IMG/VR virus record: IMGVR_UViG_3300028558_000013
Coordinates: 1 to 33,225 of that record
DNA from: a virus
Reading direction: 5' to 3' (one strand)
DNA: 33,225 bases
The notes below the pieces were generated by a model that was given only the letters and a program-made list of their open reading frames with translations, searched no databases and was not told the DNA's origin. Below, piece by piece: positions 4,521 through 33,225 of the stretch (within the stretch, counting starts at the first letter, position 1; each line of letters starts with the position of its first letter). The position numbers and the translations under genes were made by a program.

Positions 4521-6410
4521 TTACGCGGTTGGCGCTGGAGCGCCGGCAGGCGGAAGCGGGAAAGCTGCAGGCGCGGGGCCGGGGCCCGCAGGCGGCTGCA
4601 CACCGAAAGTGGCTGGCGCGGCTGCTGGAGCCTGCGCCTTAGCCCGCTCTTCGATCATCTCTTGGAGCTGGGCTATATATCGAAGGATGTGATCAAGACG
4701 GTCCTGAGGGGTCTTTTCGTTCTTTTCCTGCAGGTACAGCGACTGCGCCGTTTCTAGAGCTGTATCCAGGTCGCCGAAGGGCTCAGCCGGTACGAACTCG
4801 TTTTCCTCGACCATGTGTTCGATCGCGCCAAAGACGTCGTTAATAGCGGCGTTGACGAGGTCAAGGAAGCCGTCGGTATCGGGGACCTGCTCCAACCGCA
4901 TCTTTGTCTGCTTGGAGATCGAGCCTTCAGCGAACCAGGTATCGATCTGCTGCTGGCGGCGGGCCATGTCCTGCGACAGCGACGACATCGGGAAAGCCTT
5001 CGGCCTGCCGAATGAGGACTTGTCGATCCCGATGTCAGACCACTTGATCTGCTGGCGCGTGCGACCGGGAAGTGTGACCTCGGGCTTTGCCTGGACACCT
5101 GCTTCAACCAGCAGGACGCCAATCTGTTCAACGAAGTCCTGAACCTCCAGGAGCAACTCAACATGGCGGGCGTCGTCTAGCTGGGCTTCCTTGGCGATGG
5201 CCACACCGGACATACCAGGCTGACGCTCGGTACGAGCCGCATTGTCGGAGATGCCGACGCGGTCCTTGACCATCTGGATTCGACCGGCGAGGTAGCGGAA
5301 CGACTCAGGCCCGAGGGCCTCGGGGGAGATGAACTTGGGCTCACGGTCGCCCGCGTACGGAATAATTCCGCCCGATTTAGCTGCGAAAGCACCGTCTGGG
5401 ATCTGAGCGCCAGTCGGTTTGAGAATGCGCGGCCATGCGATCCTCATCATGTTTTCCCAGTCGGCTGCCATTTGCCGCTCAATATCGCGCTGAAGAGAGA
5501 CGATCTGCTCTGCTACGCCTTGGCCTCTCCAGGAGCCCGAAAGCTTTTTGTAGCGCAGACGCGCAAGCGGGAAGTGGTCGCGCTCGTACTTGGTGTCTTC
5601 GAAGACGAAGCCATCGACGGCGAGGACGCGGCGTCCGGGCTTCTTGCCCGAGGGGAGCTGCCAGGCAAGCGCTAGGACGCGAAGGTCGGACGTATCGAGG
5701 TCAGAGCCGAAGTACATTCCCAGTTCGACCTTGGGAGCGTTGCGGATTGCGGCTTCGGCGCCGTCGATGTGACCGAATCGTTCGATCAGGTCATCGACAT
5801 ATTCGAACGTTCGGATTGCGAGCGTCTTCGGGTTGTCCTTGAGGTTGGACTGTGACTCGTCGATGATGACTTCGTCGTCCATGACGACGCGTGTTTCGAT
5901 CTTCTTGGAAATACCGACGTCACAGAGGACGTAGCCGGTGCCGTACATTCGCGCGTCTGCGCCGGCTTGCTGGACCAAAGGCCACAGCTTCATGTCGTGG
6001 AAGGCCGCGTCCGTCCAGCGTGTCAGCTTCTTTGCCTTCACCCTTTGGCCGAAGTCGCCCGCGTCTGGACACCACTGCAGAAACGGACGCTGTGAATAAA
6101 TGCGGTTGGCTAGGACATCGTCCACCATCGCCAATGCGTTGAAGCTGGGCGCGGTCCATTGCGCGCGGCTGTAGAACGACGTGATCGACCCGGGACGCGC
6201 ACCTACTGCATAATTAAATGCGGTGTTGGTCGCGCGACCGGTCATGTACCTGTAGAAGAGAAGGTTATTGTATCGGCGCGGCCAGTTGACTAGCTCGATG
6301 TTCCGAATCCAGCTGAAGAGCTGGCGAGCGGTCTCAGGGCCTTTCGGAGCAGTCCACCACCGACGGGGAATTGATCCTTTCTTGGGCCGAGGCTTGTCGT
6401 TGATTGGCAA
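4521..6410 (-). CDS. Portal protein
   Basis: 629 aa lying between the large terminase and scaffold. TTG start with GGTGGAG upstream. Its Ala/Pro-rich C-terminal tail is consistent with portal proteins. Called from synteny and size. Confidence 0.75.
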   Translation of the reverse strand: MPINDKPRPKKGSIPRRWWTAPKGPETARQLFSWIRNIELVNWPRRYNNLLFYRYMTGRATNTAFNYAVGARPGSITSFYSRAQWTAPSFNALAMVDDVLANRIYSQRPFLQWCPDAGDFGQRVKAKKLTRWTDAAFHDMKLWPLVQQAGADARMYGTGYVLCDVGISKKIETRVVMDDEVIIDESQSNLKDNPKTLAIRTFEYVDDLIERFGHIDGAEAAIRNAPKVELGMYFGSDLDTSDLRVLALAWQLPSGKKPGRRVLAVDGFVFEDTKYERDHFPLARLRYKKLSGSWRGQGVAEQIVSLQRDIERQMAADWENMMRIAWPRILKPTGAQIPDGAFAAKSGGIIPYAGDREPKFISPEALGPESFRYLAGRIQMVKDRVGISDNAARTERQPGMSGVAIAKEAQLDDARHVELLLEVQDFVEQIGVLLVEAGVQAKPEVTLPGRTRQQIKWSDIGIDKSSFGRPKAFPMSSLSQDMARRQQQIDTWFAEGSISKQTKMRLEQVPDTDGFLDLVNAAINDVFGAIEHMVEENEFVPAEPFGDLDTALETAQSLYLQEKNEKTPQDRLDHILRYIAQLQEMIEERAKAQAPAAAPATFGVQPPAGPGPAPAAFPLPPAGAPAPTA

Positions 6411-18328: not shown

Positions 18329-19192
18329 ATGAAGACGTCCGATTTTCCCAAGGTTCGATTTGAGCTGATAACCCCAGCCGTTGCTCAGGAACTGCTTGAC
18401 GCAACTCCGCCCGGGACCAACTTTCGCAAGCTGTCAGAGAATGAAGCGAGGAAGTATGCCCGCTTCATGGCGGCAGGAACGTTTCGGTCACTGAACGGGC
18501 AGACGATTTCGATCGATAACGACGGCGCGATCGTCGACGGTCAACACCGGCTTCGTGCCATTGTTATTTCCGGGCAATCGTTGTGGATGTTGGTCGTTCG
18601 CGGGGTCGAGACATCTGACGCCGCTACCATCGATGTCGGCTATATTCGCCGATTGGTTCAGGTACTACAGGGCGAAGGTGTCAAGCACTACAATGTCGCC
18701 GCTGCCTTGGCGTACTGGAGTCAGTGGTATTTGACTGGTTCCCGTCCGGACCGACGGACCGATCTCCAGCAGCAGTTGAATTTCGTTCACAAGACGCCCT
18801 TCGTCGCGGAAGCATGTGGTCTGGGCGCGTATGTTGACCACGTAATTCCCGGGGCGCACGGTGCCTTGCTGTATCTTCTTGCGAAGAATGCAGGATGCGA
18901 GGGTCAAGCTCGCGAGTTCCTGACCTCGATCGCAACTGGCGCCAACCTTGGGCTGAATAGCCCCGCCTTCAGGCTTCGCAAGAAGATGCTGGGATTTGAG
19001 CACACCAAGGGCGCCAAGAAGACGATGGACGCCAGGGGGAAGCTCGCACTTCTGATCAAGTGCTGGAACCTTCACCGATTGGGACTACCTTGCCTCCGTC
19101 TCCATTGGCAGGATGGAGAGGCGTTCCCCGCTTTCGAGTTCGGACCTTCCTGCGAAGCTTCCGAAACGGCTCCAAAGTCGGTCAAGGCTTAA
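18329..19192 (+). CDS. ParB N-terminal domain (ParB/Srx-like) protein
   Basis: 287 aa. The motif IVDGQHRLRAIV is the ParB-like nuclease-domain signature. Confidence 0.65.
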   Translation: MKTSDFPKVRFELITPAVAQELLDATPPGTNFRKLSENEARKYARFMAAGTFRSLNGQTISIDNDGAIVDGQHRLRAIVISGQSLWMLVVRGVETSDAATIDVGYIRRLVQVLQGEGVKHYNVAAALAYWSQWYLTGSRPDRRTDLQQQLNFVHKTPFVAEACGLGAYVDHVIPGAHGALLYLLAKNAGCEGQAREFLTSIATGANLGLNSPAFRLRKKMLGFEHTKGAKKTMDARGKLALLIKCWNLHRLGLPCLRLHWQDGEAFPAFEFGPSCEASETAPKSVKA

Positions 19193-19195
19193 CCC

Positions 19196-19363
19196 ATGCT
19201 GCTCAAAGTCAAAGCAGCCGCCGAACTCCTGGGAGTGAACGTCAAGACGATCCACGCACTGATCGCCGATGGTCTCCCCCACTTCAAGGTGAGCCAGAGG
19301 ATCATCCGCATCGACCGAGATGTCTTGCTCTCTTGGGTCGAATCCAAGCGCAAGACGGCTTGA
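19196..19363 (+). CDS. xis: Excisionase-family HTH DNA-binding protein, 55 aa (not in ORF track)
   Basis: My translation is MLLKVKAAAELLGVNVKTIHALIADGLPHFKVSQRIIRIDRDVLLSWVESKRKTA. It shows the excisionase/MerR-type HTH pattern and lies immediately upstream of the integrase. Confidence 0.7.
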   Translation: MLLKVKAAAELLGVNVKTIHALIADGLPHFKVSQRIIRIDRDVLLSWVESKRKTA

Positions 19364-19397
19364 CGAGTGGCAAAAGAACCGATAGGCTCCTAGGACC

Positions 19398-20492
19398 ATG
19401 GGCGCTTACAAGCGGAAGTTCAAAGACACCTCCACTGGCTTGGTCACCGTCGAAGACCAGTGGAGGTATCGCAAGCTCGTGACCCTGCCCGACGGGCGTA
19501 AAGAGCGAGTGACAGGTACTCCAGCCATCAACACTAGAGCTGCAGCTGTCTCGGCTGAGAAAGCCCATGTTGACCGCGTCCTGGACCCGAAGAAAGCCGC
19601 GTCTGGTCTGACGTTCGCGTCGTACTGGTCTACTCGATGGTCTCCCGCATTCGGTAAGAAGGGCGCGAAGTCGACTATCGAGTCACGTAACGACATTTTC
19701 GAAAACCACCTGACAGCCGCTATCGGCTCCATTCAGCTCGGCGCCATCAACAAAGAACGGCTTGACCGCCTGGTTGCGACGCTGGAAGCCAAAGAGCTTA
19801 AGCCTCGTACCGTTCGCAACGTACTCAATGTGCTTCGCCGTGCCCTGCGAGATGCGTATGAGTGGGATTTGCTGCCTGCCCTGCCCCGCTTCCCCAAGAT
19901 CAAACCGCCACAGACCAGTTTCGACTACCTGACCCTTCCTGAGGTGGGGCTACTGCTTGCCGGTGCCCGCGATGCGCACGACCGCGCCCTACTCCATCTG
20001 GCTGCATGTACGGGTCTTCGAGCTGGAGAGATCCTTGCCCTCAAGTGGGGAGACATCGACGAAACCGCCTCTGTAGTGCGTGTGTCGCGGTCCAGGACGC
20101 GCGCAGCGACGAAGAGCACCAAGTCAGGTCGAGCACGGTCCATCCCGCTGACTGCGGACCTCCTACGCGATCTGAGAGCCCATGGAGGCGAAGACAGAGA
20201 GCGAGAGGGGCTAGTATTTCATCGTGGCGGGCAACCGATGCTCATCGGCCGATTCCAAGAGGCGCTCTGGCGCACGCTGAAGAACGCCAAGCTGCGTCGC
20301 ATCCGCTTCCACGACCTTCGTCATTCGTTCGCGTCGAACCTCATCTCTGCCGGCGTGCCCATCGTCCAGGTACAGCACTGGCTCGGACACAGCACCGTGA
20401 GCACGACCGAGATCTACGCGCACCTTGCCCCGCGGTCGGGTGACCAGCAGATCGAAGCTCTGGCCGGCATCAAGATGCTTACCGCCGCTTGA
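19398..20492 (+). CDS. int: Tyrosine recombinase (phage integrase)
   Basis: 364 aa. Motifs are AACTGLRAGEILALKWGDID (Arg box), RFHDLRHSFAS (H-x-x-R) and HWLGHSTVSTTEIYAHL (catalytic Tyr). Confidence 0.92.
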   Translation: MGAYKRKFKDTSTGLVTVEDQWRYRKLVTLPDGRKERVTGTPAINTRAAAVSAEKAHVDRVLDPKKAASGLTFASYWSTRWSPAFGKKGAKSTIESRNDIFENHLTAAIGSIQLGAINKERLDRLVATLEAKELKPRTVRNVLNVLRRALRDAYEWDLLPALPRFPKIKPPQTSFDYLTLPEVGLLLAGARDAHDRALLHLAACTGLRAGEILALKWGDIDETASVVRVSRSRTRAATKSTKSGRARSIPLTADLLRDLRAHGGEDREREGLVFHRGGQPMLIGRFQEALWRTLKNAKLRRIRFHDLRHSFASNLISAGVPIVQVQHWLGHSTVSTTEIYAHLAPRSGDQQIEALAGIKMLTAA

Positions 20493-20514
20493 GATGCGCC
20501 GCGTTGTGCAAAGG

Positions 20515-20742
20515 GGTGGCAAAGTGCGTTTCGGCTGCATGAAAATGCCTAGGAGCTGCGGTAAGATAGACTCCAAACAGTATCACTCTTCAAAACCGAT
20601 GGGGCGCCGCGAAAGCGTGCGCTCGGCGGGTTCGATTCCCGTGCGCTTCCGCTCTTTCGCATAGTTAGACGGCAAAGCAAGAGCCGTTCCAGACCATCAG
20701 AATCCAGTCAAGTCCATCTCGCGTGGCAAAATGGTGGCAAAA
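20515..20742. other. attP region: tRNA-derived core flanked by GTGGCAAA arm-type repeats
   Basis: GGTGGCAAA occurs at 20515-20523, GTGGCAAAA at 20723-20731 and GGTGGCAAAA at 20733-20742, all direct, bracketing the core at 20588-20651. The region starts 23 nt after the integrase stop. Confidence 0.55.
20588..20651 (+). tRNA. Partial tRNA gene (3' portion only, anticodon loop to discriminator), tRNA-Sec(UCA)-like; the attP core
   Basis: The anticodon loop CTTCAAA (TCA at 20590-20592) is followed by a long variable arm (an 8-bp stem with a GAAA tetraloop). The T-arm is GCGGG-TTCGATT-CCCGT. Then come the 8-nt acceptor strand GCGCTTCC and discriminator G, an 8/5 architecture. No matching 5' half lies upstream. 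Confidence 0.55.
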
Positions 20743-21030
20743 CGATCGACGAGAGGCGCCGGACCGGGATCGGAACGCGCCTGTGGATGAAGAGACGCAG
20801 TAGAGATACGGCTGGTCATGCAGTAGCTCGCTTACGCTCGCCCCGGATCATGCGGTAGGAGATGCAGCTTGAGAGACAGTTCACCTACGCCACTCCTACA
20901 GCCTGAGGGCCTAGCAGACAGCAGCTCAGGAGCTTGGGGAAGAGGGCATGACAGTTCGTGTGGACTGTCTCTGTGGTCGCATCCTTCACGTCAGTCGTAT
21001 CTTCGACATCGGGCTTAGGCAGAAGGTTGT

Positions 21031-21174
21031 TCACTTCGCCCCTCGTCTTGGGTCCAGCTTGGAGACACAGAGATAAATGGCGACGATGCCGACACTTAGT
21101 AGACCGAGTACCAGCCATGCGGGGATATTTGATGTACGTCCCTGCATTTGTTGAAGCACGATAAGTGCACCCAT
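21031..21174 (-). CDS. Small single-pass membrane protein, 47 aa (not in ORF track); last gene of the leftward arm
   Basis: The ATG at 21174 abuts the TAG of the upstream gene (TAGATG). Translation is MGALIVLQQMQGRTSNIPAWLVLGLLSVGIVAIYLCVSKLDPRRGAK. Confidence 0.45.
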   Translation of the reverse strand: MGALIVLQQMQGRTSNIPAWLVLGLLSVGIVAIYLCVSKLDPRRGAK

Positions 21175-21375
21175 CTACTTTGCCTCTTCTGTCTTCTTGT
21201 GGTCCTGGTCTGCGTAGACGTGACCAGCAATAAATGAGGCATAGAGACCGGTCAGAGCTGCGACGATAGACGTGATTTTGTCAGCGCGTATGACCAGTCC
21301 TGCAGTGAAGACCAGAAGGCTGGTGAAGACGAACCCTGTAGCCTTACGGGGGAGCTTCTTGAAGTCGATGGTCAT
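21175..21375 (-). CDS. Two-TM small membrane protein (holin-like)
   Basis: ORF track, 66 aa. Hydrophobic segments are GFVFTSLLVFTAGLVI and IVAALTGLYASFIAGHV, with a charged C-terminus. Confidence 0.6.
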   Translation of the reverse strand: MTIDFKKLPRKATGFVFTSLLVFTAGLVIRADKITSIVAALTGLYASFIAGHVYADQDHKKTEEAK

Positions 21376-21378
21376 GGA

Positions 21379-21936
21379 CTAGAAAGCCAGTCTGAGACTG
21401 AGTCCGAACATCCCATTGGTGTTGACTGTGATACCTGCGTAGAAATTCCCTAGAAGTCTGCGATCGATTTCAACACCAAAGACATTTGGTCTGACTGTCA
21501 GCTGGTGGATATCTTCTAACGCGAATAATCCCAGCTGGTAGTTCGGCTTGGATGCTGGGGTTGTAGTGGTCTTGGTCTCTTGGGTAGTGACTTCGTCTTT
21601 GCTGTTGGTGTCACTCACCTTGGTTACTTCCTTATCCTCTGTCTTGGATTCGTCCTGGGTGGTGGTCGTAGTAGTCACAGCTGTTTGACCATTCGGTTGG
21701 GGCAGCCACTGTGTGACTGTACGGGTTTGGATGTTGGTCTGTTGGTCGTGGACGATTCTGTCTTTGAACTGAATTACCTGTTTCTCAACAATTCGGTCCT
21801 GAGTCTTGGTGACTGTGACGGTCTTGACGCTGGGGTGGATATATCTGCCTGCTGTGAAGCTTCCTCCCAGTAGACACAGCAACACCACTCCAACTATCGC
21901 TAGCTTCTTTGGGGTGGCGATCAGGTTGAAGCTCAT
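21379..21936 (-). CDS. Envelope protein with an N-terminal signal or anchor, a Thr/Gln-rich linker and a C-terminal OMP-like beta signal
   Basis: ORF track, 185 aa. It has KKLAIVGVVLLCLLGG at the N-terminus and a TTTTTQDESKTEDKEV low-complexity middle. The C-terminus GMFGLSLRLAF has alternating hydrophobic residues and a terminal Phe. Confidence 0.6.
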   Translation of the reverse strand: MSFNLIATPKKLAIVGVVLLCLLGGSFTAGRYIHPSVKTVTVTKTQDRIVEKQVIQFKDRIVHDQQTNIQTRTVTQWLPQPNGQTAVTTTTTTQDESKTEDKEVTKVSDTNSKDEVTTQETKTTTTPASKPNYQLGLFALEDIHQLTVRPNVFGVEIDRRLLGNFYAGITVNTNGMFGLSLRLAF

Positions 21937-22167
21937 TTATCCGATCAGTCCGAGCAATTTAAATAGCCCCAGCACTACACCAGCTGCAATCGCTCCAGTG
22001 ACAGCCGATATCCATTTCTTTTTGTCGATGGATTTCGCCTTGATGTCCTCGGCTATGCCCTTGAGCAAGACCGTCTGTTCAGCCTGAGTCACCTTCAGCT
22101 CAGTAACTGCTTGTTCGACGTTGATGAGCCTTTGGAGATCATCCGGTCGCAGTTCGACTTGGGCCAT
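21937..22167 (-). CDS. Tail-anchored small membrane protein (holin-like candidate)
   Basis: ORF track, 76 aa. A charged helical N-terminus is followed by the C-terminal TM segment WISAVTGAIAAGVVLGLFKLLGLIG. Confidence 0.6.
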   Translation of the reverse strand: MAQVELRPDDLQRLINVEQAVTELKVTQAEQTVLLKGIAEDIKAKSIDKKKWISAVTGAIAAGVVLGLFKLLGLIG

Positions 22168-33089: not shown

Positions 33090-33225
33090 TTACGGGAGAT
33101 ACCCCCCGTCGCCGTTACAACCCCCGTCGGACCTGTGGGTGAGTGCGACTTGGCCCGGCTCTTCCATGCGGTTGGCGGACATGGCCTCGATGCGCTTGGT
33201 GAGCGATGCGAGCTTCCTCTCTTGA
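33090..33225 (-). CDS. 3' end (last 44 codons plus TAA) of the junction-spanning 508-aa virion gene, visible here because of the terminal duplication
   Basis: This is the same reading frame as 1-1518 carried through the repeat. The stop TAA at 33090-33092 directly abuts the ATG at 33089 (TAAATG coupling). Confidence 0.7.
   Translation of the reverse strand, partial: QERKLASLTKRIEAMSANRMEEPGQVALTHRSDGGCNGDGGYLP
33099..33225. repeat. Terminal direct repeat, right copy (identical to 1-127)
   Basis: Same comparison as for 1-127. Confidence 0.97.

Follow-up and report, generated by a model that had tools for sequence, protein, structure and literature searches.

A tRNA-Sec gene fragment as the probable attachment-site core of a temperate phage of Myxococcota

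The viral record IMGVR_UViG_3300028558_000013 was analysed on one strand over positions 1 to 33,225, and the whole of this 33,225-nucleotide stretch is referred to here as the window. It carries, in this order, a gene for a small helix-turn-helix (HTH) protein resembling excisionases (xis-like), a tyrosine integrase gene (int), a P arm, a fragment of the selenocysteine tRNA (tRNA-Sec) gene selC, and a P' arm. Very probably, the site following the integrase gene is the phage attachment site (attP) of a temperate phage that has a circular genome of 33,098 bp and infects selC-bearing Myxococcota. This is directly supported by the selC identity of the tRNA segment, the free circular form of the genome, the family and catalytic residues of the integrase, and the existence of relatives integrated at selC. 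The repeats in the two arms add to this support through their positions and their conservation.

The non-coding stretch 3' of the integrase open reading frame (ORF) is 392 nt long. The tRNA segment begins 95 nt past the integrase stop codon, and not 23 nt past it as stated in the initial annotation of this DNA; the distance of 23 nt is that of the first GTGGCAAA repeat. The core of the proposed attP (20587..20653, plus strand) copies selC from the anticodon loop onward: it includes the variable arm, the T arm, the acceptor 3' strand and the discriminator base G73, with 2 nt in addition. The anticodon loop CTTCAAA, with the anticodon TCA, is located at 20588..20594 on the plus strand and is the presumed strand-exchange (overlap) region. 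It is followed by the 3' strand of the anticodon stem and then by the GC-rich variable (extra) arm with its GAAA cap (20602..20624, plus strand), which was mapped from the minimum-free-energy fold of a native selC gene (locus L063, 3792-3889). According to the fold of the native gene, the 5-bp T arm, the acceptor 3' strand and the discriminator G occupy 20626..20651 of the plus strand. The T arm reads GCGGG-TTCGATT-CCCGT, with the T loop TTCGATT at 20631-20637, the 8-nt acceptor 3' strand is GCGCTTCC (20643-20650), and G73 is found at 20651. The core is bordered by phage sequence on both sides: CAAACAGTATCACT on its left, toward the P arm, and CTCTTTCGCATAGTTAGACGG directly on its right, toward the P' arm. 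Taken together with the arm-site pairs on both sides, the whole attP would span about 250-270 bp, with approximate limits at 20493..20760 (plus strand).

The window holds a 3' fragment of selC and not a gene, since ARAGORN, the Rfam score and the fold all fail to support a complete tRNA. As the initial annotation had anticipated, ARAGORN makes no call: it finds 0 tRNA genes anywhere in the window. A permissive Rfam scan of 20450-20800 returned one family, tRNA-Sec (RF01852), at 34.9 bits (E = 2e-5), where the gathering score is 47. In the Rfam alignment the 3' half is perfect, and the 5' half is mismatched in the acceptor and anticodon stems. The fold of 20552-20651 is no better than that of shuffled sequence (z = -0.68) and contains neither a D arm nor an anticodon stem. 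A complete cloverleaf, with its D arm, its anticodon stem and the 5' strand of its acceptor, is therefore missing from the window. Rfam nevertheless aligns its full-length model (20552-20650), because 7 of the 8 bases of GGAGCTGC at 20552-20559 can still pair with the acceptor 3' strand; 7 of 9 bases there are identical to the native GGAAGTGCG. The earlier statement that the 5' half is absent is therefore right in functional terms, with this residual pairing. The selC likeness over 20552-20586 is not present in the sister elements at loci L027 and L088, the fragments of which failed E = 0.1 against tRNA-Sec. Its interpretation as a conserved relic was rejected as unsupported, since both sisters are without it, and it may be a chance resemblance or a lineage-specific relic. 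A 12-nt inverted repeat (20478-20489 and 20554-20565, 92% complementary, 64 nt apart) flanks the integrase stop codon and the P-arm sites.

The origin of the fragment was sought by scanning one genome per species of bacteria and archaea with the 23-mer 20629-20651. This returned 83 stretches, almost all of them in metagenome-assembled genomes (MAGs) labelled as Myxococcota (Kofleriaceae, Haliangiales, Polyangiaceae, Sandaracinaceae or 'Myxococcales'). ARAGORN was run on 80 of the loci; in 63 of these the 23-mer is the 3' end of a tRNA-SeC(tca) gene, and in none of the 80 does it lie inside tRNA-Ser, tRNA-Leu or tmRNA. The best match, at L063 (3824-3890), is identical to window 20587-20653 in 67/67 nt, from 1 base before the anticodon loop to 2 bases past the discriminator. 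The selC gene of L040 agrees with the core in 66 of 67 nt (98.5%). The 5' half of selC reads GGAAGTGCGTCCGG[C/T]GCTGGTGTCCGGCTCGGT, and an example of the host 3' flank is CTGGGCTACCTAGTCC.

Folding of the native L063 gene gives a tRNA-Sec cloverleaf whose acceptor stem has 8 bp and whose T stem has 5 bp, with a long extra arm, and the matching host genes share the UCA anticodon, the long variable arm and the 13 bp of acceptor and T stem (8/5). The window carries the 3' strands, loops and variable arm that correspond to this host tRNA-Sec. Both the tRNA-Sec type with its UCA anticodon and the 8/5 architecture had been read from the phage DNA beforehand, and they are borne out by the 67-nt identity and by the fold of the native gene. 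In L063, selC is situated amid cellular genes (LMF1, RCC1-repeat and GAF-domain proteins), and none of the six flanking ORFs scanned has a Pfam integrase match. The 23-mer is single-copy in the L063 contig and in the L040 contig. These two selC genes look like unoccupied bacterial attachment sites (attB).

Several observations show that the window represents a non-integrated form. Its ends form an identical 127-nt direct repeat (1-127 and 33099-33225), an assembly overlap which leaves a circular unit of 33,098 bp. An independent Logan contig (SRR8464961) spans the end-to-end junction, an ENA contig of 33,239 bp has the same sequence and starts at window position 18973, and contigs from other samples match the window at 100% identity, with different start points. 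Phage genes flank the site on both sides; they encode a portal protein and a large terminase (both weak PHROG matches), an internal virion protein, a DnaB-type helicase and endonuclease VII. Given the circular closure and the phage genes on either side of the core, the site is an attP and not the end of a prophage.

Those relatives whose integrase module is closest to that of the window (70-81% identity in nucleotides, 75% in amino acids) sit integrated at selC. One of them, in CAVQDT010000008.1, was examined as two adjacent 8-kb blocks, L027 and L065. Its minus strand contains, in order, a complete tRNA-SeC gene, a homologue of the P' arm, about 6.9 kb of other sequence, and then the integrase, spacer and tRNA 3' fragment. 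The DNA that follows the complete selC is 78% identical to window 20652-20742, and the DNA at the far end (integrase, P arm and tRNA 3' fragment) is 70% identical to window 19447-20652. ARAGORN makes no call on the displaced 3' fragment of this contig. A transketolase gene is located on the outer side of the complete tRNA, and the similarity of the window to the junctions of the integrated relative stops at 20742. In sequence terms, this contig shows the attL ... attR arrangement (attL and attR being the left and right junctions of an integrated element) that is predicted from the gene order of the window.

A second relative, L088, contains the HTH_17 gene, int (75% amino-acid identity), the spacer and the tRNA fragment in the same order. 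In the 60 nt that come after this fragment, its DNA is 94% identical to the DNA 3' of the intact selC of L040. Because its outer flank matches that of the L040 gene, L088 was taken as an attR junction and L040 as the matching empty site. Bounds consisting of a regenerated tRNA and a displaced 3' fragment were thus found in two sister elements only, namely CAVQDT010000008.1 and the L088 attR as compared with the empty L040. That selC would be the integration locus had been predicted from the phage DNA, and the close relatives agree with this. The initial annotation had also named what would speak against it: best matches to tRNA-Ser, tRNA-Leu or tmRNA, no matching bacterial tRNA 3' end, or related prophages located elsewhere. 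None of these was encountered. The expected selenoprotein-using host with an outer membrane fits the selC-bearing, diderm Myxococcota.

Other readings of the tRNA segment can be weighed against this evidence. It might be a decaying phage-borne gene for tRNA-Sec or a UGA suppressor, unrelated to integration, as could be argued from the alignment of the full-length Rfam model and from the 7/8 pairing of GGAGCTGC with the acceptor 3' strand. This is very improbable. In addition to the missing ARAGORN call, the sub-threshold Rfam score, the fold no better than shuffled and the absence of the 5' resemblance from the sister elements, the segment forms the junctions of integrated elements in relatives. 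Moreover, a 3' part that is 100% identical to the host next to an unrelated 5' part is the signature of selection for gene restoration, and not of uniform decay. At the attR of L027 and L088, too, int is followed by the P arm and the tRNA 3' fragment, and so the window could instead be regarded as the attR end of a prophage in a bacterial chromosome. This has an even smaller probability, and is already refuted by the circular closure through the 127-nt terminal overlap, with other assemblies spanning the junction. Only one copy of the core is present in the window, and the DNA downstream of the core is that of the phage: it is homologous to the P' arm following the regenerated selC of L065, and tail and virion genes come after it.

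Some observations weigh against the attP of a Myxococcota phage, or against the use of the relatives as its model. No attL or attR of this exact phage was found, and all four contigs carrying its integrase have the attP form. A metagenome scan with the attL/attP junction GCGCTTCCGCTCTTTCGCATAGTT gave 0 matches, so that the integrated form of this phage was not recovered. The integrase ORF of L027 (4280-5390) is split across frames and has only a partial PF00589 match; this relative may be a decayed remnant, or its contig may contain long-read indel errors. The G+C content of the phage is 58.7%, and that of the candidate host loci (L027, L040, L063, L065 and L088) is 66-69%, an unusually wide gap for a temperate phage and its host. 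Among the other scans, the exact 23-mer had 0 matches in IMG/VR viral contigs, and a search of viral contigs for relatives of the integrase yielded 0 confirmed cases. With the P-arm/core junction shared by the clade, TCACWCTTCAAAACCGATGGGG, the metagenome scan also gave 0 matches, and the attP form of the sister elements was not recovered.

The two arms of the proposed attP are marked by direct repeats. Exact copies of GTGGCAAA begin at 19367, 20516, 20723 and 20734, all on the plus strand; of the positions given in the initial annotation (20515, 20723 and 20733), the second was exact, the other two were off by one, and the copy at 19367 had been missed. Over both strands of the whole window, 0.85 occurrences of this 8-mer would be expected, and the probability of at least three exact copies in the 392-nt intergenic region is approximately 1.7e-7. 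The clustering is thus far above chance. The P arm has a tandem pair of putative arm-type sites (20506..20523, plus strand; repeat family D7), composed of GTGCAAA at 20506 and GTGGCAAA, in which the GCAAA starts are 11 nt apart. The pair reads TGTGCAAAGGGGTGGCAAAG and lies about 65-80 nt to the left of the anticodon loop. The putative arm-type pair of the P' arm (20723..20741, plus strand) consists of two copies of GTGGCAAA, also 11 nt apart; it reads CGTGGCAAAATGGTGGCAAAAC and lies about 130-150 nt to the right of the loop. A degenerate ACGGCAAA at 20669..20676 (plus strand; GGCAAA at 20671) is a possible further P'-arm site, with no equivalent evident in L065.

Comparison with the relatives lends good support to the role of these repeats as arm-type sites with the core GGCAAA, to which the integrase would bind. 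The position of the P-arm sites is occupied by GTGGCAAAGGGGTGGCAAAA in L027 and by GGGCAAAGGGCGGGCAAC in L088, and that of the P'-arm sites, downstream of the regenerated selC in L065, by TGGGCAAAGGGCGGGCAAAA. In the 7.1-kb integrated relative (CAVQDT010000008.1), GGCAAA occurs in exactly four copies, all on one strand, in two tandem pairs with one pair per arm. The likeness to arm-type sites noted at the outset is therefore extended by the 11-nt tandem pairs on both arms and one strand, and by the same layout in the integrated relative. Repeats on both arms that are distinct from the core sequence are the pattern of a heterobivalent system. The additional exact copy of GTGGCAAA (19367..19374, plus strand; repeat family D9) lies in the 34-nt gap between the stop of the xis-like gene and the start of int. 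Together with the bases after it, this copy forms a 16-nt stretch (19367-19382) that shares 81% identity with the P'-arm site at 20734-20749, and GGCAA was not seen at the homologous position in L088. It is tempting to speculate that this copy is a site for integrase autoregulation.

The adjacent integrase (364 aa; 19398..20492, plus strand) belongs to the tyrosine recombinases, as indicated by matches to PF00589 (E = 1e-31) and the phrog_1 integrases (E = 8e-67). It retains all six catalytic residues of the R-K-H-R-H/W-Y set: R208, K242, H305, R308, H331 and Y340 are invariant or nearly so in an alignment of 40 sequences. The AlphaFold2 model (predicted local distance difference test score, pLDDT, of 89) has three domains like those of lambda Int. 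A three-stranded sheet and a helix (residues 2-62) are followed by the core-binding and catalytic domains; the N-terminal strands span residues 2-9, 16-29 and 35-40 and the helix residues 47-62, with pLDDT of 85-91. Fold matches include the Tn1549 Int, lambda Int and XerA, and full-length lambda Int structures (1z1b, 1z1g, 5j0n) align to the model over about 360 columns. No Pfam arm-binding family matches residues 1-101. The predicted architecture is that of an integrase that binds arm-type sites.

Directly upstream of int, as also in the sister L088, is the gene for a 55-aa HTH_17 protein (19196..19363, plus strand). It matches PF12728 (E = 7e-10, above the curated cut-off) and phrog_66, 'excisionase and transcriptional regulator' (E = 6e-6). 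This protein is likely to be an excisionase (recombination directionality factor).

The crossover most likely takes place in the anticodon loop. Three elements, those of the window, L027 and L088, all start to resemble the tRNA no more than one base from the first nucleotide of the anticodon loop. The crossover was placed there because an integrating element needs the gene only from the crossover to its 3' end, and this is where homology starts. The regenerated tRNA in L065 has the variable arm CGAAAGCGTG, as do the attP of the window and L063; the arm of L040 differs by one base. The displaced fragment of L088 contains the single-base variant CGAAAGCGCG, which is the same as in L040, the locus whose flank L088 shares. 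In CAVQDT010000008.1, the displaced fragment has the variable arm CCAAGGCGCC; it differs from the regenerated selC at 5 of 10 variable-arm positions, and the rest is alike. This difference tells against a firm placement, since a crossover to the left or to the right of the variable arm would agree with it, and the data do not fix the position.

Strand exchange could also take place in the T loop or at the junction of the T stem and the acceptor (class J of Islander), with the same attP and the same target. The homology of the anticodon loop and variable arm would then be a passenger. The presence of CGAAAGCGTG both in the regenerated selC of CAVQDT010000008.1 and in the apparently unoccupied L063, and of CCAAGGCGCC in the displaced fragment, would fit a variable arm that stays on its original side. 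Furthermore, the same MAGs contain a second family of selC islands, which is unrelated and starts its homology at the T loop, and the att that phage phiE067 uses measures 19 bp and lies at the 3' end of selC (PMC7266877). However, homology extends from the anticodon loop in all three related elements, the displaced arm of L088 is the L040 lineage variant, as expected if the displaced variable arm derives from the host, and the regenerated tRNA of L065 shares its variable arm with the attP of the window. A crossover near the T loop is therefore unlikely, yet has enough in its favour to be taken seriously.

With the anticodon loop as the favoured position, integration may be envisaged as follows. 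The integrase would be heterobivalent, as lambda Int is, with an N-terminal domain that binds the GTGGCAAA-type sites in the P arm (20506-20523) and the P' arm (20723-20741). Its core-binding and catalytic domains would act where the sequence corresponds to the tRNA-Sec anticodon stem-loop. The phage would be inserted by exchanging strands with the chromosomal selC, and the 7-nt anticodon loop is the most likely place for this. The 5' part of the bacterial selC would thereby be joined to the host-identical 3' part of the phage (20588-20651), giving a complete selC at attL that is followed by the P' arm. The native 3' part would end up at attR, with xis-int and the P arm immediately upstream of it. 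The 55-aa HTH_17 protein would direct excision.

The specificity for selC is confined to the close clade of this integrase. Its extension to the whole integrase family was rejected, given that homologues with 46-48% identity abut tRNA-Glu(ctc)/tRNA-Gln(ctg). In three such loci, L089 (4283-4469), L090 and L091 (5115-5301), the integrase adjoins this tRNA pair, which lies on the opposite strand. About 30 nt separate the integrase stop from the 3' end of tRNA-Glu in L091, and in L089 and L090 the two overlap. These elements are small, with HTH_17 and ParA-like genes.

Other elements were also encountered at selC. The second family of selC islands mentioned above, present in the same MAG groups, was seen at L016, L017, L041, L047, L057, L073, L075 and L082. 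L076/L047 and L054/L057 are pairs on the same contig. The islands are about 15-16 kb long. The displaced fragments of this family share the upstream sequence ...GATCGCTGCAAGGCTGCRCGGTCGTTGTTGATTCGCCGTGCGTTCACAAG and match the tRNA from the T loop only. Regenerated tRNAs are followed by TTTG..., and the fragments by CCA in 5 of 8 loci and by TTT... in L057 and L082. An 8-kb contig (L026, JALTMC010000043.1) has selC and two further copies of its 3' end (272-294, 2070-2092 and 5996-6087), which suggests tandem small islands. In L022 (2011-2110 and 3398-3425), selC is accompanied by a 28-nt 3' fragment 1.3 kb downstream, probably a remnant. A selC-like stretch in L066 (3780-3860, DASRQZ010000005.1) has no ARAGORN call, scores 36.6 bits in Rfam, and is 91% identical to the core of the window with a different upstream sequence. 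It may be an att fragment of yet another element.

A few further features of the phage genome were recorded. Contigs from ENA (ERZ27245403) and JGI (3300031251) contain a 34-nt insertion, TCGCCGCCGCGACGACCCTATGTCGAGAGAAACC, at window 20791/20792, just right of the P' arm (L086 2633-2666 and L087 2041-2074), and this is their sole difference from the window. The point of linearisation interrupts a 508-aa minus-strand gene, with a weak SU10_adaptor match, that runs from about 1518 across the junction. Look-up of a 189-aa ORF (182-751) gave no record. A gene call based on G+C at third codon positions (GC3) was dropped as too strict at the G+C content of this phage. Only window 19000-22000, which covers the integrase and attP, was queried in BLASTN distant mode, and this stretch had no match among 50,697 phage records.

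The attP assigns both a host and a lifestyle to an otherwise unclassifiable 33-kb metagenomic phage. The host would be a selC-bearing member of the Myxococcota (of the Polyangia/Haliangiales/Kofleriaceae type), and the lifestyle temperate, with site-specific lysogeny. The integrase, the Xis-like protein, the attP of about 270 bp and the 67-nt attB make up a candidate integration toolkit for a bacterial group with few genetic tools. The Int/attP/attB set could become an integration vector for genetically intractable myxobacteria of the Polyangia type.

A more doubtful proposal, and on balance an improbable one, is that integration rewrites selC and does not only restore it. With a crossover in the anticodon loop, the tRNA-Sec expressed by every lysogen would be a chimera, its variable arm, T arm and acceptor 3' strand being phage-derived. 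The variable arm of tRNA-Sec is a recognition element for SerRS, SelA and SelB. Given this role and the variable-arm difference in CAVQDT010000008.1, phages of this clade could change the selenocysteine-decoding tRNA of their host. Should this be true, selenoprotein synthesis could be altered where the selC of the host differs from the phage copy, with lysogenic conversion or a host-range filter as the outcome.

The mechanism is the standard strategy of tRNA-targeting tyrosine integrases, and selC is an already documented target. It is an established insertion point of the enterocyte-effacement locus (LEE) and related islands, and is used by retronphage phiR73 and Burkholderia phage phiE067 (PMC7266877). 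For phiR73, integration at selC is attributed to Sun et al. 1991, as cited in PMC7266877. New here are the uncultured Myxococcota as a host group, the 67-nt core anchored at the anticodon loop, the motif of the arm sites, and a phage without a nucleotide match over 19000-22000.

Both phiR73, a P4-like phage of E. coli, and phiE067 of Burkholderia thailandensis resemble the phage described here in using the 3' part of selC, a phage-borne copy of the tRNA and a tyrosine integrase (PMC7266877). The extent of the identity differs: in phiE067 it covers only an att of 19 bp at the 3' end of selC (PMC7266877), whereas the window phage has a 67-nt block starting from the anticodon loop. The hosts differ at the level of phylum, with Pseudomonadota for these two phages and Myxococcota for the window phage. 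In the enterobacterial selC islands (LEE, SHI-2 and the STEC island (from E. coli producing Shiga toxin) of Schmidt et al. 2001), the same landmark is used and a P4-type integrase lies beside selC. These are large, non-phage pathogenicity islands, however, and they differ in the family and sequence of the integrase and in the host.

In the Islander framework, an island has two end markers, namely the regenerated tRNA gene and the displaced 3' fragment (PMC4383910). Its anticodon-centred 'A' class (Williams 2002; Hudson, Lau and Williams 2015; PMC4383910) combines a tyrosine integrase with carriage of the tRNA sequence that starts at the anticodon loop and reaches the 3' end. CAVQDT010000008.1 and L088 match this pattern without a difference in mechanism, the crossover here being placed from the start of homology. 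Finally, the lambda Int/attP system is similar in the predicted three-domain integrase, in the tandem direct repeats on both arms 65-150 bp from the core, in the attP size of about 250 bp, and in the small HTH protein encoded next to int. The identity to lambda Int is only about 18%, the target is a tRNA gene in contrast to the intergenic site of lambda, and the GTGGCAAA consensus is unrelated to that of lambda.

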